In this document: one piece after another, positions 1 through 42,539 of the stretch
Position numbering within the stretch: the stretch's first letter is position 1
Layout of the letters: each line of letters starts with the position of its first letter
IMG/VR virus record: IMGVR_UViG_2897341779_000003
Strand: one strand, 5' to 3'
Source: a virus
Lineage: Duplodnaviria > Heunggongvirae > Uroviricota > Caudoviricetes
DNA: 42,539 bases
Program-made: the position numbers and the translations under genes
Notes under the pieces: generated by a model
What the model was told of the DNA's origin: nothing
What the model saw: only the letters and a program-made list of their open reading frames with translations
The model's database searches: none

Positions 1-318
1 ATGAAAAAGATAGCTGCTATATCATTAATTAGTGTTTTTCTTATGTCTGGGTGTGCTGTACATAATGATGAGACAAGTATCGGTAAATTTGGTCTTGCAT
101 ATAAAAGTAATATTCAGCGTAAACTCGATAACCAATACTACACCGAAGCCGAAGCTTCTTTAGCCAGGGGTAGAATATCTGGTGCAGAAAATATAGTAAA
201 AAATGATGCAGTTCATTTCTGTGTTACTCAGGGCAAAAAAATGCAGATAGTTGACCTGAAGACAGAAGGTGCAGGATTACATGGCGTCGCTCGTCTGACA
301 TTCAAATGTGGAGAGTGA
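1..318 (+). CDS. small lipoprotein (105 aa), host gene flanking the prophage; position relative to the P2-type att site and yegQ suggests a yegR-like gene
   Basis: N-terminal signal peptide with lipobox LMSGC; lies outside the att core at 647-673. The yegR assignment is synteny inference only, not sequence recognition. Confidence 0.6.
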   Translation: MKKIAAISLISVFLMSGCAVHNDETSIGKFGLAYKSNIQRKLDNQYYTEAEASLARGRISGAENIVKNDAVHFCVTQGKKMQIVDLKTEGAGLHGVARLTFKCGE

Positions 319-646
319 GAATAGATTCAAGACTACCATGCACATATTTATTTTATCTGTGATGGGATATTCTTCAACACCATTATTGAATGTGAGTAAT
401 AATGACAAACAGATAGATGAAACTAAAGCAGAATTTTTATTTTATGCAGCCATCAGAAAATGATGTCAAAAATGTTCCAATGCTTTAGGTTCATTTTTTG
501 GTAAGCGTCAAACATGCGCGTTCTGGCTGTGCGTAACCGGAACCTGTGCGAGCACGATGTCGATAAGTGAAAAGCATCGTGCTATGAAGGAGGATTCTAT
601 CGATGTGGTCAATGGAAGACGGTGACCAGGGATAGGGCTTATGCAT

Positions 647-673
647 AAAAAATAAGCCCGTGTAAGGGAGATT
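647..673. other. prophage attL core (27 bp)
   Basis: AAAAAATAAGCCCGTGTAAGGGAGATT matches the P2 att core as I recall it; a second copy with 2 substitutions is at 36470-36496; int lies immediately inside. Confidence 0.75.
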
Positions 674-752
674 TAGGGTGTCACCAGTAGGGGCTTTCAA
701 CGGTACAATGCGGGTTTGAGCGGCATAAATTACCACTGAAAGCCCTTAAACG

Positions 753-1766
753 TTACTCTACTGTGGACACTGTGTGGACACTCTCGGCCTCAGTACCACC
801 TCTTAGCGGATTAAGAGAAATGGCGTCCTGAAGGTACTCTGGCGCAAAATGAGCGTAAACCATAGTTTGCTCAATCCGCGTGTGACCTAGTATCCGTTGT
901 AGCGTGATAATACTTCCTCCATTAATCATGAAATGAGTGGCAAAGCTGTGCCTTAGTGCATGTGTGGCTTGCCCCATTGGCAAATCCGGTTTTATTGCTT
1001 TCATTGTTCGTCTGAAGCGAGGGTAATCAGCATCAGGGAATAAAAAACCTCGTTTGTTATCCGCGATCATTTTGGCAACAGCCTCTGAAATCGGGACGGT
1101 GCGTGGTTTGTTTGTTTTCGTTTTAACAAACGTGACGCGGTTATGGATGATATTTTCTGCTTTCAAACGAGCTGCTTCTCCCCAACGTGCTCCTGTACTC
1201 AGGCAAAGAATCGCAATCTTTTTATTGTCGCCGTCAAGTGCTGCAAGCAGTAAGGCAATTTCTTCCTGTGTGAGATAGCCTGTTTCTGGTTTTTCCTCCT
1301 TAAGCCTCTTTGTCCCTCTGATAGGGTGCTCACCAAAGAATAACTCCGCTTCAATCAGGGCTGTAAACATGCCGCTAATACATGTTAAATCACGATTGAT
1401 ACTCGAAGGTTTAATACCCTGGCTTCTTCGGGTGGCGCAGTACTGGCTGATAAGGGATTTCGTGATTTGAAATGCGCATGGGTCATTCGTTATTTTTGTG
1501 AAGATTTCAATTTTTCCAAGATTAGATTTCCCATGCTCTTCGTGTTTACCCTTTAAATCCCACCAGATCTGTGTCAGTTCCGACAGACGTCGTTTGTCTG
1601 TTGGTTTTGATAGCCATTCTTTATTGTGGTGGTTGTACAACGTGTATTTTTCGAAAGCGACAGCTTCGCTTTTCTTATCAAACTTCCTACGGATGCGTTT
1701 TCCGTTACGTCCAGTAGGGCGGATGTCCACTTCATATCGACCATCATCGAGTTTTTTGATTGCCAT
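753..1766 (-). CDS. int: tyrosine integrase, P2 Int-like (337 aa)
   Basis: 337 aa as in P2 Int; C-terminal HxxR and catalytic Tyr motifs (ALRHSFATH, LGHTRIEQTMVYAH); adjacent to the att core; RBS GGAGGG before the ATG. Confidence 0.9.
   Translation of the reverse strand: MAIKKLDDGRYEVDIRPTGRNGKRIRRKFDKKSEAVAFEKYTLYNHHNKEWLSKPTDKRRLSELTQIWWDLKGKHEEHGKSNLGKIEIFTKITNDPCAFQITKSLISQYCATRRSQGIKPSSINRDLTCISGMFTALIEAELFFGEHPIRGTKRLKEEKPETGYLTQEEIALLLAALDGDNKKIAILCLSTGARWGEAARLKAENIIHNRVTFVKTKTNKPRTVPISEAVAKMIADNKRGFLFPDADYPRFRRTMKAIKPDLPMGQATHALRHSFATHFMINGGSIITLQRILGHTRIEQTMVYAHFAPEYLQDAISLNPLRGGTEAESVHTVSTVE
762..781. promoter_or_regulatory. tandem TGTGGACAC direct repeats, candidate Int arm-type binding sites (P-prime arm)
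   Basis: Two 9-bp direct repeats 11 bp apart next to the att core, overlapping the 3' end of int; P2-type Int arm sites are of the TGTGGACA type. Confidence 0.5.
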
Positions 1767-36149: not shown

Positions 36150-36368
36150 ATGTTTCATTGTCCTTTATGCCAGCATGCCGCACATGCGCGTACAAGCCGC
36201 TATATCACTGACACGACAAAAGAGCGTTATCACCAGTGTCAGAACGTGAATTGCAGCGCCACATTCATCACTTATGAGTCGGTACAGCGATACATCGTGA
36301 AGCCGGGAGAAGTCCACGCCGTAAGACCGCACCCGTTGCCGTCAGGGCAGCAAATTATGTGGATGTAA
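36150..36368 (+). CDS. ogr: late transcription activator Ogr (72 aa, C4 zinc finger)
   Basis: 72 aa from the internal ATG; CPLCQ ... CQNVNC zinc finger; last phage gene before attR. Confidence 0.85.
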   Translation: MFHCPLCQHAAHARTSRYITDTTKERYHQCQNVNCSATFITYESVQRYIVKPGEVHAVRPHPLPSGQQIMWM

Positions 36369-36380
36369 TTACAAACAGGA

Positions 36381-36406
36381 AGCCCCTCAGTCGAGGGGCT
36401 TTTTTG
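36381..36406 (+). terminator. rho-independent terminator after ogr
   Basis: Hairpin GCCCCTC-AGTC-GAGGGGC followed by TTTTTT. Confidence 0.75.
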
Positions 36407-36469
36407 TCGATGTGGTCAATGTGTGGACGTGACCAGAAATAAATCCTTTTATTTCATTGTGTTACGCGT

Positions 36470-36496
36470 AAAAAATAAGCCTGCGTAAGGGAGATT
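36470..36496. other. prophage attR core (27 bp; 2 substitutions relative to the attL copy)
   Basis: AAAAAATAAGCCTGCGTAAGGGAGATT; forms the terminator of the adjacent sRNA gene. Confidence 0.7.
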
Positions 36497-36556
36497 ACAC
36501 AGGCTAAGGAGGTGGTTCCTGGTACAGCTAGCATTTTATGGGTTATGTTTTTCAGC
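36470..36556 (-). ncRNA. cyaR: CyaR (RyeE)-like Hfq-dependent sRNA, about 87 nt; its terminator overlaps the att core
   Basis: Minus-strand sequence GCTGAAAAACATAACCCATAAAATGCTAGCTGTACCAGGAACCACCTCCTTAGCCTGTGTAATCTCCCTTACGCAGGCTTATTTTTT agrees with my recollection of E. coli CyaR apart from 2 positions in the terminator stem. Confidence 0.7.
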
Positions 36557-36640: not shown

Positions 36641-38002
36641 TCACTTACCGTGGGGGTTACGCGTGGTTTCCCCGGAGAAATTACGCATCAGCAGCGCGTA
36701 ATTTAGCTCAAGATCCTGCGGCACCGGGAGCCACACAGTATAACCATCGCCTGGTGCGACCGGCATCGCTTCACCTTTGGCGTTTTCCATATGCTCAAGG
36801 GTAAAGTTAATGTTGCCTTGCGGCGTCATCAGCTCAAGGCTGTCGCCAACGGAGAATTTATTTTTCACCGCTACCGCCGCGAGCTCCCCCTTGCGCTCAC
36901 CGGTAAACTCACCAACAAACTGCTGGCGGTCAGAAACCGAATAACCGTATTCGTAGTTCTGATAATCGTCGTGGGTATGACGACGCAGGAAACCTTCGGT
37001 ATAGCCACGATGCGCCAGACCTTCCAGCGTTTCCAGCAGGCTGGTATCGAACGGTTTGCCCGCAGCGGCGTCATCGATAGCTTTACGGTAAACCTGCGCG
37101 GTGCGTGCGCAATAGTAGAAAGATTTGGTACGGCCTTCGATTTTCAGCGAATGCACGCCCATTTTGGTCAGGCGTTCAACATGGGCGATGGCGCGCAGAT
37201 CTTTCGAGTTCATGATGTAAGTGCCGTGCTCATCTTCAAACGCGGTCATATACTCGCCCGGACGCTGGGCTTCTTCGATCATAAACACTTTGTCGGTTGG
37301 CGCGCCGATACCCAGCGTCGGCTCAACATTTTGCACCGGAATCGGCTCGTACTTGTGTACGATGTTGCCGACGTCATCTTCTTTCCCTTCCTGGACATTG
37401 TACTCCCAGCGGCAGGCGTTGGTGCAGGTGCCCTGGTTCGGGTCGCGCTTGTTGATATAGCCAGAGAGCAGGCAGCGACCGGAGTAGGCCATGCACAGCG
37501 CGCCGTGAACGAAGATTTCGATCTCCATATCCGGCACCTGATTGCGGATCTCTTCAATCTCTTCCAGTGACAGTTCGCGAGAGAGGATCACGCGGGTCAG
37601 ACCCATTTGCTGCCAGAATTTCACCGTCGCCCAGTTTACGGCGTTAGCCTGTACCGAGAGGTGGATTGGCATTTCCGGGAAGTGTTCACGCACCAGCATA
37701 ATCAGCCCTGGATCGGACATAATCAGCGCATCCGGCCCCATTTCCACCACCGGTTTCAGGTCACGGATAAAGGTTTTCAGCTTGGCGTTGTGCGGTGCAA
37801 TGTTGACCACGACATAAAACTTTTTCCCCAGCGCGTGGGCTTCATTGATGCCGAGCTGAAGATTTTCGTGGTTGAATTCGTTGTTGCGTACACGCAGGGA
37901 GTAACGCGGCTGGCCCGCATAAACAGCATCTGCGCCATAAGCGAAAGCGTAACGCATATTTTTCAGCGTTCCCGCCGGGGAAAGGAGTTCCGGTTTAAAC
38001 AT
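36641..38002 (-). CDS. yegQ: U32-family peptidase/hydroxylase, YegQ-like (453 aa)
   Basis: 453-aa ORF with RBS GAGAG; host-like GC content; U32 family and yegQ identity recalled from the N-terminus MFKPELLSPAGTLKNMRYAF and its position next to CyaR. Confidence 0.75.
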   Translation of the reverse strand: MFKPELLSPAGTLKNMRYAFAYGADAVYAGQPRYSLRVRNNEFNHENLQLGINEAHALGKKFYVVVNIAPHNAKLKTFIRDLKPVVEMGPDALIMSDPGLIMLVREHFPEMPIHLSVQANAVNWATVKFWQQMGLTRVILSRELSLEEIEEIRNQVPDMEIEIFVHGALCMAYSGRCLLSGYINKRDPNQGTCTNACRWEYNVQEGKEDDVGNIVHKYEPIPVQNVEPTLGIGAPTDKVFMIEEAQRPGEYMTAFEDEHGTYIMNSKDLRAIAHVERLTKMGVHSLKIEGRTKSFYYCARTAQVYRKAIDDAAAGKPFDTSLLETLEGLAHRGYTEGFLRRHTHDDYQNYEYGYSVSDRQQFVGEFTGERKGELAAVAVKNKFSVGDSLELMTPQGNINFTLEHMENAKGEAMPVAPGDGYTVWLPVPQDLELNYALLMRNFSGETTRNPHGK

Positions 38003-38489: not shown

Positions 38490-39704
38490 ATGACTGGAAA
38501 TATTCACCAGAATTATAATGCAAGGGATGTAATTAATGCCCCGGAAGTAAAAACAGCAATTTTGCAAAGAAGTCTGTTTCGCCAGGATAATGAGACCATC
38601 CAAAAATGGTTACTCAACCATTTTTATCGATGGCTAATTAGTGACTTTCCAATGGTGCAACAAATTAACTCGCTTGCAGAATATTCACTGTTTAATAAAA
38701 ATGATGATGTAATCCCGGAATGGCTGGTATCGAAGTTTAATACTGCCTCAGTATCAACTGCGACACTTTATTATATCGAAACCGATCATCAACAAATATT
38801 AACCAAAGAACGGGAGTTGGTGGAATTTCTTTCCAGGAAATGTGGTACCCGTCTGGAATCAAAACTACAGCGCATAACCTGCTACGTTGCGTTCAGAATG
38901 CGTGAAGAAGAGCATGAAAAGATGCTTCAACGACGCGAGAAAGGGTGGCAGCCGAGTGAACAAAATACTGTAAAGTCAATACTTGATGTGCCAGACGGAA
39001 AAATTGTTGAGTTTGATGCCAGTCATTCGAACCTTCGTCGTGAAATGGCTTATGAATCATGGCATATGCAACATTGCGTAGGCCAGTTTGATGATCGAAA
39101 AAATCTTACCGGTGGTTATGGTGAGTATTATGCAAATCAAATTGAGCAACATAAATTACGGTTATTCAGTTTGCGTGATAATAATAATATTCCTCATGTT
39201 ACTATTGCTCTCAATGTTGTTGGTGATTCACTTGAAATTGATCAAATAAAAGGTAAGCAAAATCGTCATCCAGTTAAAAAATATGCGGACGATGTTTTGT
39301 CTCTTTTGCAACTATTATCACCACAAGCAGTTCGACATAGTGATTGTGAAGGTATGGGTATTGTTTATGAAAATACACCTGAATATCAGGGGTGGAAATA
39401 TGTAACGGAAGTATACGAAACCAGTTTTTTACTAAGCGTACTACATAATAACTTTCATTTATTAGAACATTTTACAAATCCTTCAGTGGAGTTGCAGTGG
39501 TTACTGTTACACAGCGCACCTGATAAGTTACATTATCTTAATGCTATTGACCCTATAGTTGCTACTTCTGCGGAAATGTTATTCCCTGGCGCTGAGTGGC
39601 ATCCGCAATTTGCAGGTCAAAATATCAGCAACATTTCCTTTGAGATAGAGAGTTTGACATTACAGACATCTCATTACTTACCCCTGTCAGAGGTTGAAAA
39701 ATAA
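38490..39704 (+). CDS. hypothetical protein (404 aa), first gene of an AT-rich three-gene operon
   Basis: Long ORF with candidate sigma70 promoter (-35 TCAACA 38444-38449, -10 TATAAT 38467-38472); stop overlaps the next start (TAATG). Confidence 0.6.
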   Translation: MTGNIHQNYNARDVINAPEVKTAILQRSLFRQDNETIQKWLLNHFYRWLISDFPMVQQINSLAEYSLFNKNDDVIPEWLVSKFNTASVSTATLYYIETDHQQILTKERELVEFLSRKCGTRLESKLQRITCYVAFRMREEEHEKMLQRREKGWQPSEQNTVKSILDVPDGKIVEFDASHSNLRREMAYESWHMQHCVGQFDDRKNLTGGYGEYYANQIEQHKLRLFSLRDNNNIPHVTIALNVVGDSLEIDQIKGKQNRHPVKKYADDVLSLLQLLSPQAVRHSDCEGMGIVYENTPEYQGWKYVTEVYETSFLLSVLHNNFHLLEHFTNPSVELQWLLLHSAPDKLHYLNAIDPIVATSAEMLFPGAEWHPQFAGQNISNISFEIESLTLQTSHYLPLSEVEK

Positions 39705-40420
39705 TGAGTCTTATCATTGTTCTCCTGGTCGCAATATTTATTTTTATCTATAGATACAAAAAAAACAAACCACAAATCGATGCTTTTATTGCTAAAGAAA
39801 AAGAAAAGGATCTAATCAAGGACAAAAGACGAGCAACAAAGAGACGTAAGTGGGCATTAGCAATTGGTGATATAGTTGCTCGTCGTAATGGACTGTCAGT
39901 AAATGGCTTCACGTTAGATTTAAAGTTGACTGATGATAAGCGTCAACAACTTGCACTACAGGTTAAACAAGAGCTAGGAACAGAAACTTACCAAAGCAAC
40001 GAAGATTTCCGTCAACAAATTGGCGTTATATTACAGCGCTGGGCTACAGGGCTTGGTAATTCTCCACATGATTTTTACGAACAACTGGCAGCACAAGGCC
40101 AGGTTCTGGATGGGCTGGCGTTTGACTGTATGCGCACTGCTTTTTTAACTCGTTGCATCGCCGGTTTAGGCTGGTGCGATGAAAACCAGGCCTGGATAGT
40201 GTTATTACTGAATGCTCAAAGAGCACAAGATTGTTTCGCTTCATGGGAAGATTATGCCAGTGCTTATGTTCGCGCCCGACAAAAATGGTTAATGATATAC
40301 GATACCCCCGTCGCCACTGCGAACCGTGATTTAAAGGAAGTCACTGCATGGTTGAAAGATCCATCCAGTAACTGGAAAAAATTGCCGTGGAATGAATTTA
40401 AAATTTTTGAACCTAATTAA
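39704..40420 (+). CDS. hypothetical membrane-anchored protein (238 aa)
   Basis: N-terminal transmembrane helix (LIIVLLVAIFIFIY) followed by a basic linker; translationally coupled to the upstream gene; family (possibly DUF1266-like) is uncertain. Confidence 0.6.
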   Translation: MSLIIVLLVAIFIFIYRYKKNKPQIDAFIAKEKEKDLIKDKRRATKRRKWALAIGDIVARRNGLSVNGFTLDLKLTDDKRQQLALQVKQELGTETYQSNEDFRQQIGVILQRWATGLGNSPHDFYEQLAAQGQVLDGLAFDCMRTAFLTRCIAGLGWCDENQAWIVLLLNAQRAQDCFASWEDYASAYVRARQKWLMIYDTPVATANRDLKEVTAWLKDPSSNWKKLPWNEFKIFEPN

Positions 40421-40430
40421 AAGGATATCT

Positions 40431-42539
40431 ATGGAACAGGATGCTCGTTTACTCAGTGCAATGCAAAAGATGTGTGACCAAAAAATGCCACTTAATACTC
40501 TTGAGAGAAAATGGCAAATCGCAAATATTCCTTATATGTTACAAGAAAAACGTTATCAGGAACTAGATGAAATTTATAACCAGGTATTACAGGAGAGTTT
40601 CACTTCTCGTCAGGCTGAAAAGCGCTATTTTTTATCCTGGACCCAAATGTGCAACTATTTTTATGATATGAACACGCTAGTTGATGCCGGAACAGAAGGT
40701 TTAAGACTCATTAAAACCTGGCAGCAAGCAAGACCTCATTCTACACATGCCTGGCTTGCCGAAGCACAATACTGGAATCACCGTGCATGGTTATATCGCA
40801 GTTATGGCTGGGCAAATGATACCACACATGCAATGTGGCTTTGTGCTGGTGCATGTAATGAACAAATGGTCATCGCTACACTTAAAGCAATTGATTGTGA
40901 CCCACGACAATGGATGGCTGCATTACTTACCAGCACCAACTCAAAAGTATTTGGTCAGCCAGCCTGGCTGGCGGCACACCTTAACGGTGATAGTGTCGCA
41001 GGAATACCATTAATGATCGCACTGAAAAATTATCACCGCCGCTCCCCGCAAGAAGTGGAAGCGTTGATGGCGTATTCCGGACTTTCGTTTGAGCATGCAA
41101 TATGCCCCGTTTTGCCTCGCCCCAATATACTTCCTGAGTATGATGATGATGGTGGGCAAAAATATTGGCTTTCTGTTTGCCTGACTATTTTTCCTCACAC
41201 TTTTTATCCTTTTGTTGAATATATACCATTTCGAATGCCACGCTGGGGAGGGTCGCATAAAGAAATTTCCGAATTGCTGGATTCAGTAACCTGTAAGCAC
41301 TTATCTACCGAAGAACATGACTATATGGATCTCTTACTTTGGTGGGATGATTACCGAGATGTCAGCATTGAGGACATTGCGCCCGAGGAGCAACAATATG
41401 CAATCGACTTAGCAGAGAATATTGCTCAGTACGCACAATTTCAGGAATGTCGCCATAATGCCCTAGAGTGGTTACTTGCCTGCTATAACAAGCAGAACGA
41501 TCACGATAAGTTGTGGTGCTGTATACAGCGAGCGGTGATGGAAGACATGAAGCTCAATAATTATTACACTGCGTACGCGATAAAATTTGCATTAAGTTAT
41601 TATCCAGATTCATTCTGGATATATAATTTTATCTGCCAAAATTCACAGAATACAACTTATGCTACACCTGTTATTTATAGGGGGTTTTTCCAGCGAGAGG
41701 GTATTTTGGGTTTTGAAAAAGATGAAGGGCAGGGCGATGCTTGGCTGGAAAAAGCTAGTGACATTAAATACAATCATAATTGGCGGTCGGCAATAAAAGA
41801 TTTGAGTTGGTTTGACCTTTCTGATTATTTCATTCCGCTTGCGACAATTGGTAAGCAAAGAAATATTCCTGCCGCATTAAATTTAGTTGCTCTTGAATAT
41901 TTGGATAAGGAAGACAATACAAAATTACCTTATGAACCATCTACAGCTTTGGAGTATTTTCGACGGGCACTTAAAATACTTCAAGATGACCTAAATTTCC
42001 ATAGCTCGGTATCTTATCCACTGGTAAAAAATTATGGTTATAGCGAACATCAACAAGATCTACAAAATATTTATTTTAGCATTGCTATCTGCTACCAGGC
42101 ACTAAATAAACAAGAAATTTCTAAAGAAACACGGGCTATTTATGAAAAAAATCTCCTTGACAATTTATTTCTGGCTCATGAAGCTGGACATGAAAAAGCA
42201 TGGGGGCTTTTTTTACTTAATATCTTTGAGGTGAAAGAACTCTCACTTGCTCATTTGCACCTCCAACAGGTACAAGAAGAAGCGAATAAAGGTACGCTCG
42301 AAGCAATGATTACTTTGTCGCGCCTGTATGGTAACAAAGAAGATGAAAAACTGTTTAACATGAAACTCAGTGCGCGCTGGACACATTTTGCCGAGTCTTT
42401 ATATCCAGATAACGAAATTATTGCAGATTGCCTTTATCATCTCCATTTCTCCAGCCTGTGGAAACGCTGTCGTTATGCCTGGTATACCTTTCGTATTCCA
42501 GCTAGCGAATTACCCGGCCAGGTTAACAGTATGGTGTAA
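40431..42539 (+). CDS. hypothetical protein (about 702 aa), Trp-rich N-terminal region and a TPR/Sel1-like C-terminal region
   Basis: ATG 40431 preceded by AAGGA; the ORF-track start 40392 is in the same frame and overlaps the previous gene; TAA stop at the window end. Confidence 0.6.
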   Translation: MEQDARLLSAMQKMCDQKMPLNTLERKWQIANIPYMLQEKRYQELDEIYNQVLQESFTSRQAEKRYFLSWTQMCNYFYDMNTLVDAGTEGLRLIKTWQQARPHSTHAWLAEAQYWNHRAWLYRSYGWANDTTHAMWLCAGACNEQMVIATLKAIDCDPRQWMAALLTSTNSKVFGQPAWLAAHLNGDSVAGIPLMIALKNYHRRSPQEVEALMAYSGLSFEHAICPVLPRPNILPEYDDDGGQKYWLSVCLTIFPHTFYPFVEYIPFRMPRWGGSHKEISELLDSVTCKHLSTEEHDYMDLLLWWDDYRDVSIEDIAPEEQQYAIDLAENIAQYAQFQECRHNALEWLLACYNKQNDHDKLWCCIQRAVMEDMKLNNYYTAYAIKFALSYYPDSFWIYNFICQNSQNTTYATPVIYRGFFQREGILGFEKDEGQGDAWLEKASDIKYNHNWRSAIKDLSWFDLSDYFIPLATIGKQRNIPAALNLVALEYLDKEDNTKLPYEPSTALEYFRRALKILQDDLNFHSSVSYPLVKNYGYSEHQQDLQNIYFSIAICYQALNKQEISKETRAIYEKNLLDNLFLAHEAGHEKAWGLFLLNIFEVKELSLAHLHLQQVQEEANKGTLEAMITLSRLYGNKEDEKLFNMKLSARWTHFAESLYPDNEIIADCLYHLHFSSLWKRCRYAWYTFRIPASELPGQVNSMV

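Follow-up and report, generated by a model that had tools for sequence, protein, structure and literature searches.

The window, by which we mean the whole 42,539-nt stretch analysed here, is a segment of Escherichia coli chromosome containing yegR, a host arm, a P2-like prophage that runs from int to ogr, and trhP, also called yegQ (Table 1). The core at attL is the same as the core of P2 attP, and the site occupies the position at which K-12 carries its D'-ogrK remnant, as expected of the P2 attachment site locI. To the right of this core, 674-790 matches positions 556-669 of our P2 reference (L004), where the Cox and Int P'-arm sites are annotated. At the other end, the P arm of the resident prophage aligns with the P arms of P2-like prophages integrated at the same site in Citrobacter, Trabulsiella, Enterobacter and Huaxiibacter.

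Table 1. Coordinates of the features in the window, with the basis for each assignment where one is given.
Feature	Position	Strand	Remarks
yegR	1-318	+	105-aa lipoprotein, PF27694; ORF and annotation; cargo gene of the E. coli-specific island
Intergenic host arm	319-646		between yegR and the attL core
Second small lipoprotein gene, 5' remnant	319-437	+	73% nucleotide identity to L093/L094, from yegR through ~437; a 110-aa gene comes after yegR there
Island segment	494-599	+	hairpin inside; 568-595 weakly like the right end of IS200C
Fossil Int arm-type binding block (putative)	600-629	+	repeat 1 intact, ATGTGGTCA; repeat 2 destroyed; from sequence only
Decayed, shortened counterpart of the P-arm IHF-site region	630-646	+	17 nt versus 33 nt in the phage
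attL core AAAAAATAAGCCCGTGTAAGGGAGATT	647-673	+	27 bp, same as the P2 attP core
P' arm of resident prophage	674-790	+	arm-type direct repeats TGTGGACACTGTGTGGACAC at 766-785; overlaps the end of int
int of resident prophage	753-1766	-	ORF
ogr of resident P2-like prophage	36150-36368	+	translation MFHCPLCQHAAHARTSRY...; matches annotated P2 ogr
ogr terminator	~36381-36405		matches annotated P2 terminator
Functional-type P arm of resident prophage	36407-36469	+	Int block 36407-36436, then IHF region to core
attR core, CCTGCG variant AAAAAATAAGCCTGCGTAAGGGAGATT	36470-36496	+	25/27 to the attL core
Predicted intrinsic terminator of trhP (yegQ)	36468-36505	-	terminator scan, fold, covariation
trhP (yegQ)	36641-38002	-	ORF and annotation; its terminator is the attachment site

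The two cores of the resident prophage differ at two positions (...GCCCGTG... in attL and ...GCCTGCG... in attR). The near-isogenic empty site (L008, 3647-3673) has the attL version, so the CCTGCG variant was brought by the incoming phage and strand exchange took place to the right of the differing positions. CCTGCG is also the commonest form of the host core in other genera. Past trhP, the interval 38490-42539 contains three plus-strand ORFs of 404, 238 and 715 aa, the last of them heading to the end of the window; the 404-aa ORF is annotated in strain N1 as a PcfJ-domain protein. In K-12, Eco889 and O157 the position beyond trhP is occupied by yegP-baeR-baeS. The interval is a lineage-specific island.

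The core itself belongs to a predicted host element. On the empty site, a terminator scan places an intrinsic terminator of trhP with an 11-bp stem, a 6-nt loop and a TATTTTTTAT tail, and the fold has a z-score of -5.3. In a comparison of 21 distinct sequences from a wide range of genera, pairing is kept in 97.8% of cells, and compensatory changes occur at three pairs. Host DNA on the trhP side supplies the 5' half of the stem; the att core supplies the loop, the 3' half and the T-tract. The 27-bp core is by this prediction part of a rho-independent terminator of trhP that predates any element discussed below and is conserved across the family.

The starting point of this analysis was the sequence-only reading, which had noticed that 15 nt to the left of attL, TCGATGTGGTCAATG at 600-614, recur at 36407-36421 between ogr and attR. 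This repeat is confirmed: both copies are on the plus strand and there is no third copy in the window, for a chance expectation of about 0.02, with two copies in none of 100 shuffles. The similarity was also said to continue past the 15-mer, and it does (TCGATGTGGTCAATG-GAAGACGGTGACCAG in the host arm versus TCGATGTGGTCAATGTGTGGAC-GTGACCAG in the phage P arm). Whereas the position of the 15-mer could be kept, the extent of the features is better given as a common block of 30 nt, 600-629 against 36407-36436, with 27 of the 31 alignment columns matching, and as cores at 647-673 (attL) and 36470-36496 (attR). When the host arm minus the core was aligned locally with the P2 interval from ogr to the core, the score was 38, against 13.9 +/- 2.2 for dinucleotide shuffles, and none of 2,000 shuffles scored as high. 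An unprompted repeat search recovered the same pair (D7; 595-634 and 36402-36441) together with a second one (D8; 639-673 and 36462-36496), in which the similarity restarts 8 nt before the core with the spacing off by 16 nt. This net 16-nt shortening falls on the host side of the comparison.

The GenBank record of P2 (AF063097) annotates TCGATGTGGTCAATGTGTGGACGTGACC as a protein_bind feature, 'Int, P arm', followed by the IHF site and then by the core. The 600-629 block corresponds exactly to this footprint, beginning at its first base. Within the footprint lie two direct arm-type repeats, for which the family consensus is tgTGGaCa (PMC3448106). Repeat 1 of the host copy, TGTGGTCA, is identical to that of the phage P arm and agrees with the consensus at 7/8 positions, whereas repeat 2 is destroyed (TGTGGACG in the phage, GAAGACGG in the host) and has lost the TGG of the consensus. 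The sequence-only reading had proposed to check whether the Int arm-site consensus is retained, and the answer is a divided one: it is kept in repeat 1 and gone from repeat 2, with the IHF region decayed or deleted. A functional P2-type P arm requires two consensus repeats and an IHF region at phage-like spacing; the relic has a single such repeat and, in the allele of the window, 17 nt where the phage has 33 nt, and by sequence criteria it is no functional P arm. It resembles the P arm of P2 attP in the order of its parts, in orientation, in its side of the core, in repeat 1 and in the matching footprint columns; it differs in repeat 2, in the IHF region and in the distance to the core, which is 17 nt in the window and 29 nt in longer alleles. 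The P arm of P2 attP, with its Int arm-type repeats and IHF site, was reportedly characterised by the Haggard-Ljungquist laboratory.

These longer alleles, in which the host arm reads ...GACCAGGGATCAATCCGTATTTACAGCTTATGCAT before the core, were found in E. coli 23AR0806, 2013C-4282 and 7/2. They are the rarer form, and the three representatives (L099, L100 and L101) retain ...GGATCAATCCGTATTTACAG..., which can be aligned to the IHF region of the phage, AAATAAATCCTTTTATTTCA. Their distal part matches that region in 20-21 of 33-34 columns (6-10 of 5,000 shuffles were as good), and over the whole long-allele relic 48 of 65 columns agree with the P arm. The short allele of the window looks like the product of a further deletion in a long allele.

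For an E. coli sequence, the spacer between yegR and the core varies to an unusual degree. Over 500-664, the eight to ten alleles sampled differ at about 12% of sites and by two indels, and they apparently fall into a few deeply diverged haplotypes. The run 593-623, which includes the left 24 nt of the relic, is invariant among the sampled alleles. A 32-mer over the relic block is likewise exact for at least 28 nt in 5,223 of 5,426 genomes (96%), compared with 271 for the neighbouring 32-mer. The whole relic (600-630) has four variable sites, which is the background rate, and 624-630 also vary at that rate. An invariant run of this kind within 164 nt has an estimated p of ~0.3 if its location is unconstrained and of ~0.02 if the location is pre-specified. 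Invariance of the left 24 nt would not be the simplest prediction for a neutral fossil, and constraint on it is unproven.

A small ORF also starts within the relic. It has 10 codons (MWSMEDGDQG, then stop; 603-635, plus strand) and a Shine-Dalgarno-like AAGGAGG at 586-592, 10 nt ahead of it. Codons 1-7 lie in the invariant block, the last three differ by lineage, and in long alleles the frame extends to 24 codons. The phage P arm has an ORF of equal length in the same frame (MWSMCGRDQK, then stop) that is not preceded by an AAGGAGG-type motif, and the resemblance between the two is probably a coincidence of homology.

The invariant run and the near-exact 32-mer are the reasons to consider that the block may still be functional, with TGTGGTCA bound by the N-terminal domain of Int and altering the use of the site. 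Related proposals are that the repeat would underlie a preference for locI, that decay of the arm would let attR act as attB, or that the block would serve the host, for instance through the ORF at 603-635. We regard a surviving function as unlikely, whether in the first form or in these variants taken jointly with it. P2-like phages use the same core in genera that lack the block, which is therefore dispensable for integration. Repeat 2 and the IHF region are destroyed, the right part of the relic varies like its surroundings, and the length of the invariant run is not rare. A search of 250-760 for an RNA element found no Rfam family near threshold and a fold z-score of -1.8, which is not significant, and selection on the host to maintain a phage site is hard to motivate. 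The block is probably non-functional, and we infer that it has no remaining role in recombination.

P arms with two consensus repeats and an IHF region stand beside the same core in prophages of Citrobacter, Trabulsiella, Enterobacter, Huaxiibacter and E. albertii, and the hosts of these P2-like prophages lack the insertion described below wherever the state of the site could be seen. With a degenerate copy in the host and full P arms in island-free hosts, transfer from phage to host is the parsimonious direction. The opposite course, in which a P2 ancestor took up the E. coli host arm by imprecise excision, gains some support from GTGACCAG, which follows repeat 2 in the relic and in the P2-type arms of E. 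coli and is not shared by the P arms of other genera. It does not account for the two-repeat P arms with a conserved AAATAAATCCTTTTATTTCA in island-free Citrobacter, Trabulsiella, Enterobacter and Huaxiibacter, nor for the agreement of the arm repeats with the phage's own P' arm repeats and with the family consensus, from which the host copy has degenerated; we consider it very unlikely. A chimeric query designed for recombinants between the relic and a true P arm, an event that would cure the prophage through homologous recombination, found no hybrid junction. Six genomes were covered to at least 80% by this query, and they proved to carry an IS200C-interrupted prophage or long-allele host arms.

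The history of the site becomes visible outside E. coli. In a sample of 80 trhP loci from other species, the core is kept ~190 nt downstream of trhP throughout the Enterobacteriaceae. In Escherichia sp. E1V33 and in about 45 other species, including members of Citrobacter, Klebsiella, Enterobacter, Kosakonia and Trabulsiella, the start of yegS lies ~85 nt from the core, with neither yegR nor arm-like sequence between them. E. coli has an insertion immediately to the left of the core, of ~970 bp or, in lineages with a 170-bp deletion, ~800 bp; its left ~330 bp lie just upstream of window position 1 and include a fossil attL core. GC content is 34-39% in the island and 50-56% in the genes on either side of it. 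The exact place of the E1V33 core is taken in E. coli by a decayed copy, AAAAAGTCAGTTCAAGTATGGAGGATT, that matches the core at 18/27 positions without gaps; apart from the two real cores, only 1 of 85,026 27-mers in the window matches the core as well. In the Eco889 allele this left copy matches at 19/27 with one gap. A decayed core on the left, an intact core on the right and a P-arm-like block just inside the right end together give the layout of an integrated P2-type element.

Three marks of an element remnant are thus present: relatives lack the insertion, which sits at an established target of an integrase; copies of the att core flank it as direct repeats (18/27 on the left, intact on the right); and its base composition is unlike that of the host. 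Residual phage genes, the fourth mark looked for, are lacking, as the island consists of yegR and a truncated lipoprotein gene; that no recognisable phage gene survives in it counts against a phage origin. The left end of the island has no significant similarity to the P' arm of P2 (score 16-18, against 16.3 +/- 2.2 for shuffles). A lone TGGGGACA at that end, which agrees with the arm consensus at 7/8 positions and was considered as a relic of P', is expected by chance. Among the genomes covered, E1V33 is the single Escherichia outgroup with no prophage at the site, which leaves the timing of the insertion loose, and its lineage may have lost the element by excision. Decayed islands and prophage remnants with degenerate att repeats are comparable in being AT-rich insertions with one decayed and one intact core; unlike them, the attR of the present remnant has become the textbook attB of a model phage.

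The possibility that a host sequence came to resemble the P arm by chance or convergence would fit the occurrence of the block in strains without P2 DNA and with no phage gene nearby. Such an origin is highly improbable. Chance comes nowhere near a match of this strength, and the block has the side, orientation and order of a P arm relative to the core and spans precisely the Int footprint. Long alleles carry the homology through the IHF region, and the block sits in an AT-rich insertion, missing from outgroups and bounded by a decayed core copy.

Within E. coli, the host arm is found at empty yegR-trhP sites without phage genes in Eco889, in O157:H7 (Z1615) and in strain N1. The last of these is a near-isogenic empty site, 100% identical to the window over 1-673, in which the same 27-bp core is followed by the trhP side. 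A 117-nt query spanning the relic and the core was covered to at least 80% in 5,375 of 5,426 complete E. coli genomes (~99%). At the locus of a K-12 derivative (L001) the order is yegR, host arm, partial core, D', ogrK, P arm, core, trhP. Here the block is on the yegR side of the remnant and so predates it. What lies at 600-646 is the usual left arm of locI, the classical site of P2, and no strain-specific remnant. The sequence-only reading had instead proposed a recent, strain-specific scar, left by a cryptic P2-like remnant that occupied the site before the present prophage, and although remnants of the K-12 type (D'-ogrK, P arm, core) do exist at the locus, the empty-site data refute this proposal and we give it next to no credence.

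Other parts of that proposal fare better. Its central idea, that the host arm derives from a P2-type P arm and that the core at the right end of an older element was reused, agrees with our results. Its description of the core as residual phage DNA does not, the core being the 3' half and T-tract of the trhP terminator. It had further held that presence of the block in strains without any P2 DNA would make it host sequence. The block is present in such strains, but with a scar that is fixed in E. coli this does not settle the matter, and only outgroups without the yegR island reveal the insertion.

Homologues of YegR (PF27694) are nearly confined to E. coli and Shigella. Those in other bacteria have 45-82% identity and sit at unrelated loci, one of which (L089) is flanked by IS elements. 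In two of these loci (L093 and L097) the yegR homologue is followed by an intact gene for a lipoprotein of 108-110 aa. The remnant of this second gene in the window (319-437) falls largely within the 170-bp segment 324-493, which is deleted in the K-12 and O157 lineages. The segment is carried by the window strain and roughly 950 genomes, and is missing from K-12, O157 and most others. Searches of phage genomes, Pfam and PHROGs gave no true phage homologue of YegR and, in the local Pfam library, no domain above threshold. Two phage records with YegR matches, ON470606.1 (vB_EcoM-720R8; L005) and AY639599.1 ('Phage TP'; L006), include E. coli flank with yegS, yegR and trhP, and phrog_21109 matches YegR at E = 6e-72. 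These matches are probably host flank taken in by over-wide prophage boundaries. BLAST searches of phages and plasmids with 480-673 and 438-599 returned just the core and records with E. coli flank, namely vB_EcoM-720R8, 'Phage TP' and mislabelled chromosomal pieces. Two divergent YegR homologues (P0016 and P0043), followed as a path to sister species, came from frameshift-rich E. coli assemblies and were of no use for this.

The remaining part of the island in the window, 494-599, includes a hairpin at 550-585. Its 9-bp stems, AGCACGATG (~550-558) and CATCGTGCT (~577-585), are conserved between E. coli lineages, its loop of 15-18 nt varies at four to five positions, and no T-tract follows. 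The segment 568-595 matches the right end of IS200C at 22/28 positions, and 15 of 1,000 shuffles were as good in an unconstrained alignment; an IS200 origin of 494-599 is at this level a weak lead, no finding. In E. coli EC556 (L098, 1825-2537), a P2-like prophage at the same site carries IS200C precisely at the junction of the ogr terminator with the first base of the Int P-arm block. This insertion point is the point at which the homology between host arm and P arm begins, which hints that the ancestral element may have carried a copy of the IS200 family beside its P arm.

Other stages of decay can be seen at the same site. The K-12 remnant starts inside the attL core, where AAAAAAATAAGCCCGTGTA is joined to GCAGAGTTCTCC... 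and runs into gene D, and it retains ogr, a full P arm and an intact core. This cryptic P2 remnant at locI (3' end of gene D, ogrK, attR) is said to have been described by Barreiro and Haggard-Ljungquist in 1992 (J Bacteriol 174:4086). It shares with the fossil its locus, its orientation and its formation by deletion of the left part from within the attL core; it differs in being recent and limited to certain strains, with phage genes still in place beside a full P arm. The fossil, for its part, has reached fixation in E. coli; it is devoid of phage genes and keeps a decayed arm of ~46-59 nt, and its place to the left of the K-12 remnant makes it the older of the two.

In many genera, yegS is separated from the terminator core of trhP by inserts of 0.25-2.7 kb that are particular to the genus, as at loci of Enterobacter (L009, L069, L074), Kluyvera (L033, L039, L053) and Leclercia (L057, L081). 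Several inserts are bounded by a second copy of the core at 78-83 nt from the start of yegS, with matches to the core of 23 (L067), 23 (L076), 20 (L070), 18 (L080) and 18 (L036) out of 27. Two of them, L070 and L080, end in true P arms. At two loci from metagenome-assembled genomes (L065 and L062), putative P-arm-like sequence beside the core was recognised by eye and by an ungapped match of 19/30. In the P2-like prophages of L055 and L071, 0.5-1 kb lie between ogr and the P arm, which makes cargo at that position plausible. Taken as a whole, the yegS-trhP junction looks like a recurrent landing site that gathers remnants. At one of the loci, L009 (CP169086.1, labelled Enterobacter hormaechei B17-3), TrhP shows 100% identity to that of E. 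coli, and the DNA from the core into the 3' end of trhP agrees with E. coli at 98%, while the yegS side resembles Enterobacter. This suggests that the locus is recombinant or that the record carries a wrong label.

We conclude, with good though not complete confidence, that 600-646 is what decay has left of the P arm of an ancient P2-type element, that this element was reduced by deletion, and that its old attR is now the attB locI. This conclusion draws on direct observations: the homology of the block, its occurrence in nearly all E. coli, the lack of both the block and the island in outgroups, the decayed core copy and the terminator. In an E. coli ancestor, a P2-type element would have integrated at the 27-bp core that follows trhP and later have been cut down to ~0.8-1.0 kb, comprising yegR, the truncated second lipoprotein gene and ~100 bp more. 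Such a reduction would need just the loss of the left half of the prophage; the D'-ogrK remnant of K-12 shows a loss of this kind, with a deletion that starts within the attL core and ends in gene D. Of the two core copies, the left one, no longer needed, would have decayed, and the right one, still in use as the terminator of trhP, would have remained intact. In this way the P arm, the core and the trhP side, which together formed the old attR, would have become the present attB. The resident prophage would then have joined that core by ordinary Int-mediated recombination, so that the junction at 600-673 reads fossil P arm, core, new P' arm. We also infer that a P2-like phage, and not some other element equipped with a P2-type integrase, was the original occupant, and yegR would have arrived with it. 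The extended version, in which locI is the attR of the element that delivered yegR and the surviving repeat would still bind Int and tune the choice of site, appears to us quite unlikely.

Phage att sites that overlap the 3' end or the terminator of a host gene, with the phage carrying a replacement copy, form the pattern described in Campbell's review. The site downstream of trhP is alike in that the core is half of a terminator whose hairpin is rebuilt after integration by attR, where a phage-derived core adjoins host DNA on the trhP side; it is unlike in that the sequence across the core, 600-646, would be arm DNA of an earlier occupant, with no duplicated gene end. The original papers on locI are reportedly those of Barreiro and Haggard-Ljungquist (1992) and Yu and Haggard-Ljungquist (1993). 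In the full-text literature searched, whose coverage lies outside these two papers, there is no mention of the arm similarity at locI, and an earlier report of it may exist; decayed remnants of integrative elements are a known kind, and the site is well known.

What the finding offers is genome archaeology and no new mechanism. A classical model system can be reread, in that the 'bacterial' arm of the P2 attB locI would be old phage DNA, and yegR, an orphan gene found throughout the species, probably came in by way of the same integrase target. The site provides a decay series, from the intact prophage of the window through the K-12 remnant to the fossil fixed in E. coli, with partly comparable inserts, bounded by copies of the core, in other genera; the whole series lies at one site, where a host function, that of the trhP terminator, protects the core. 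Flanks of an 'empty site' can hold phage-derived sequence and may mislead programs that call prophage boundaries, of which the yegR-bearing phage records and PHROG are probably examples. If the surviving repeat does bind Int, it would either help to make locI the preferred site or mark the point in the decay of a P arm at which attR, a poor target, turns into a good attB.
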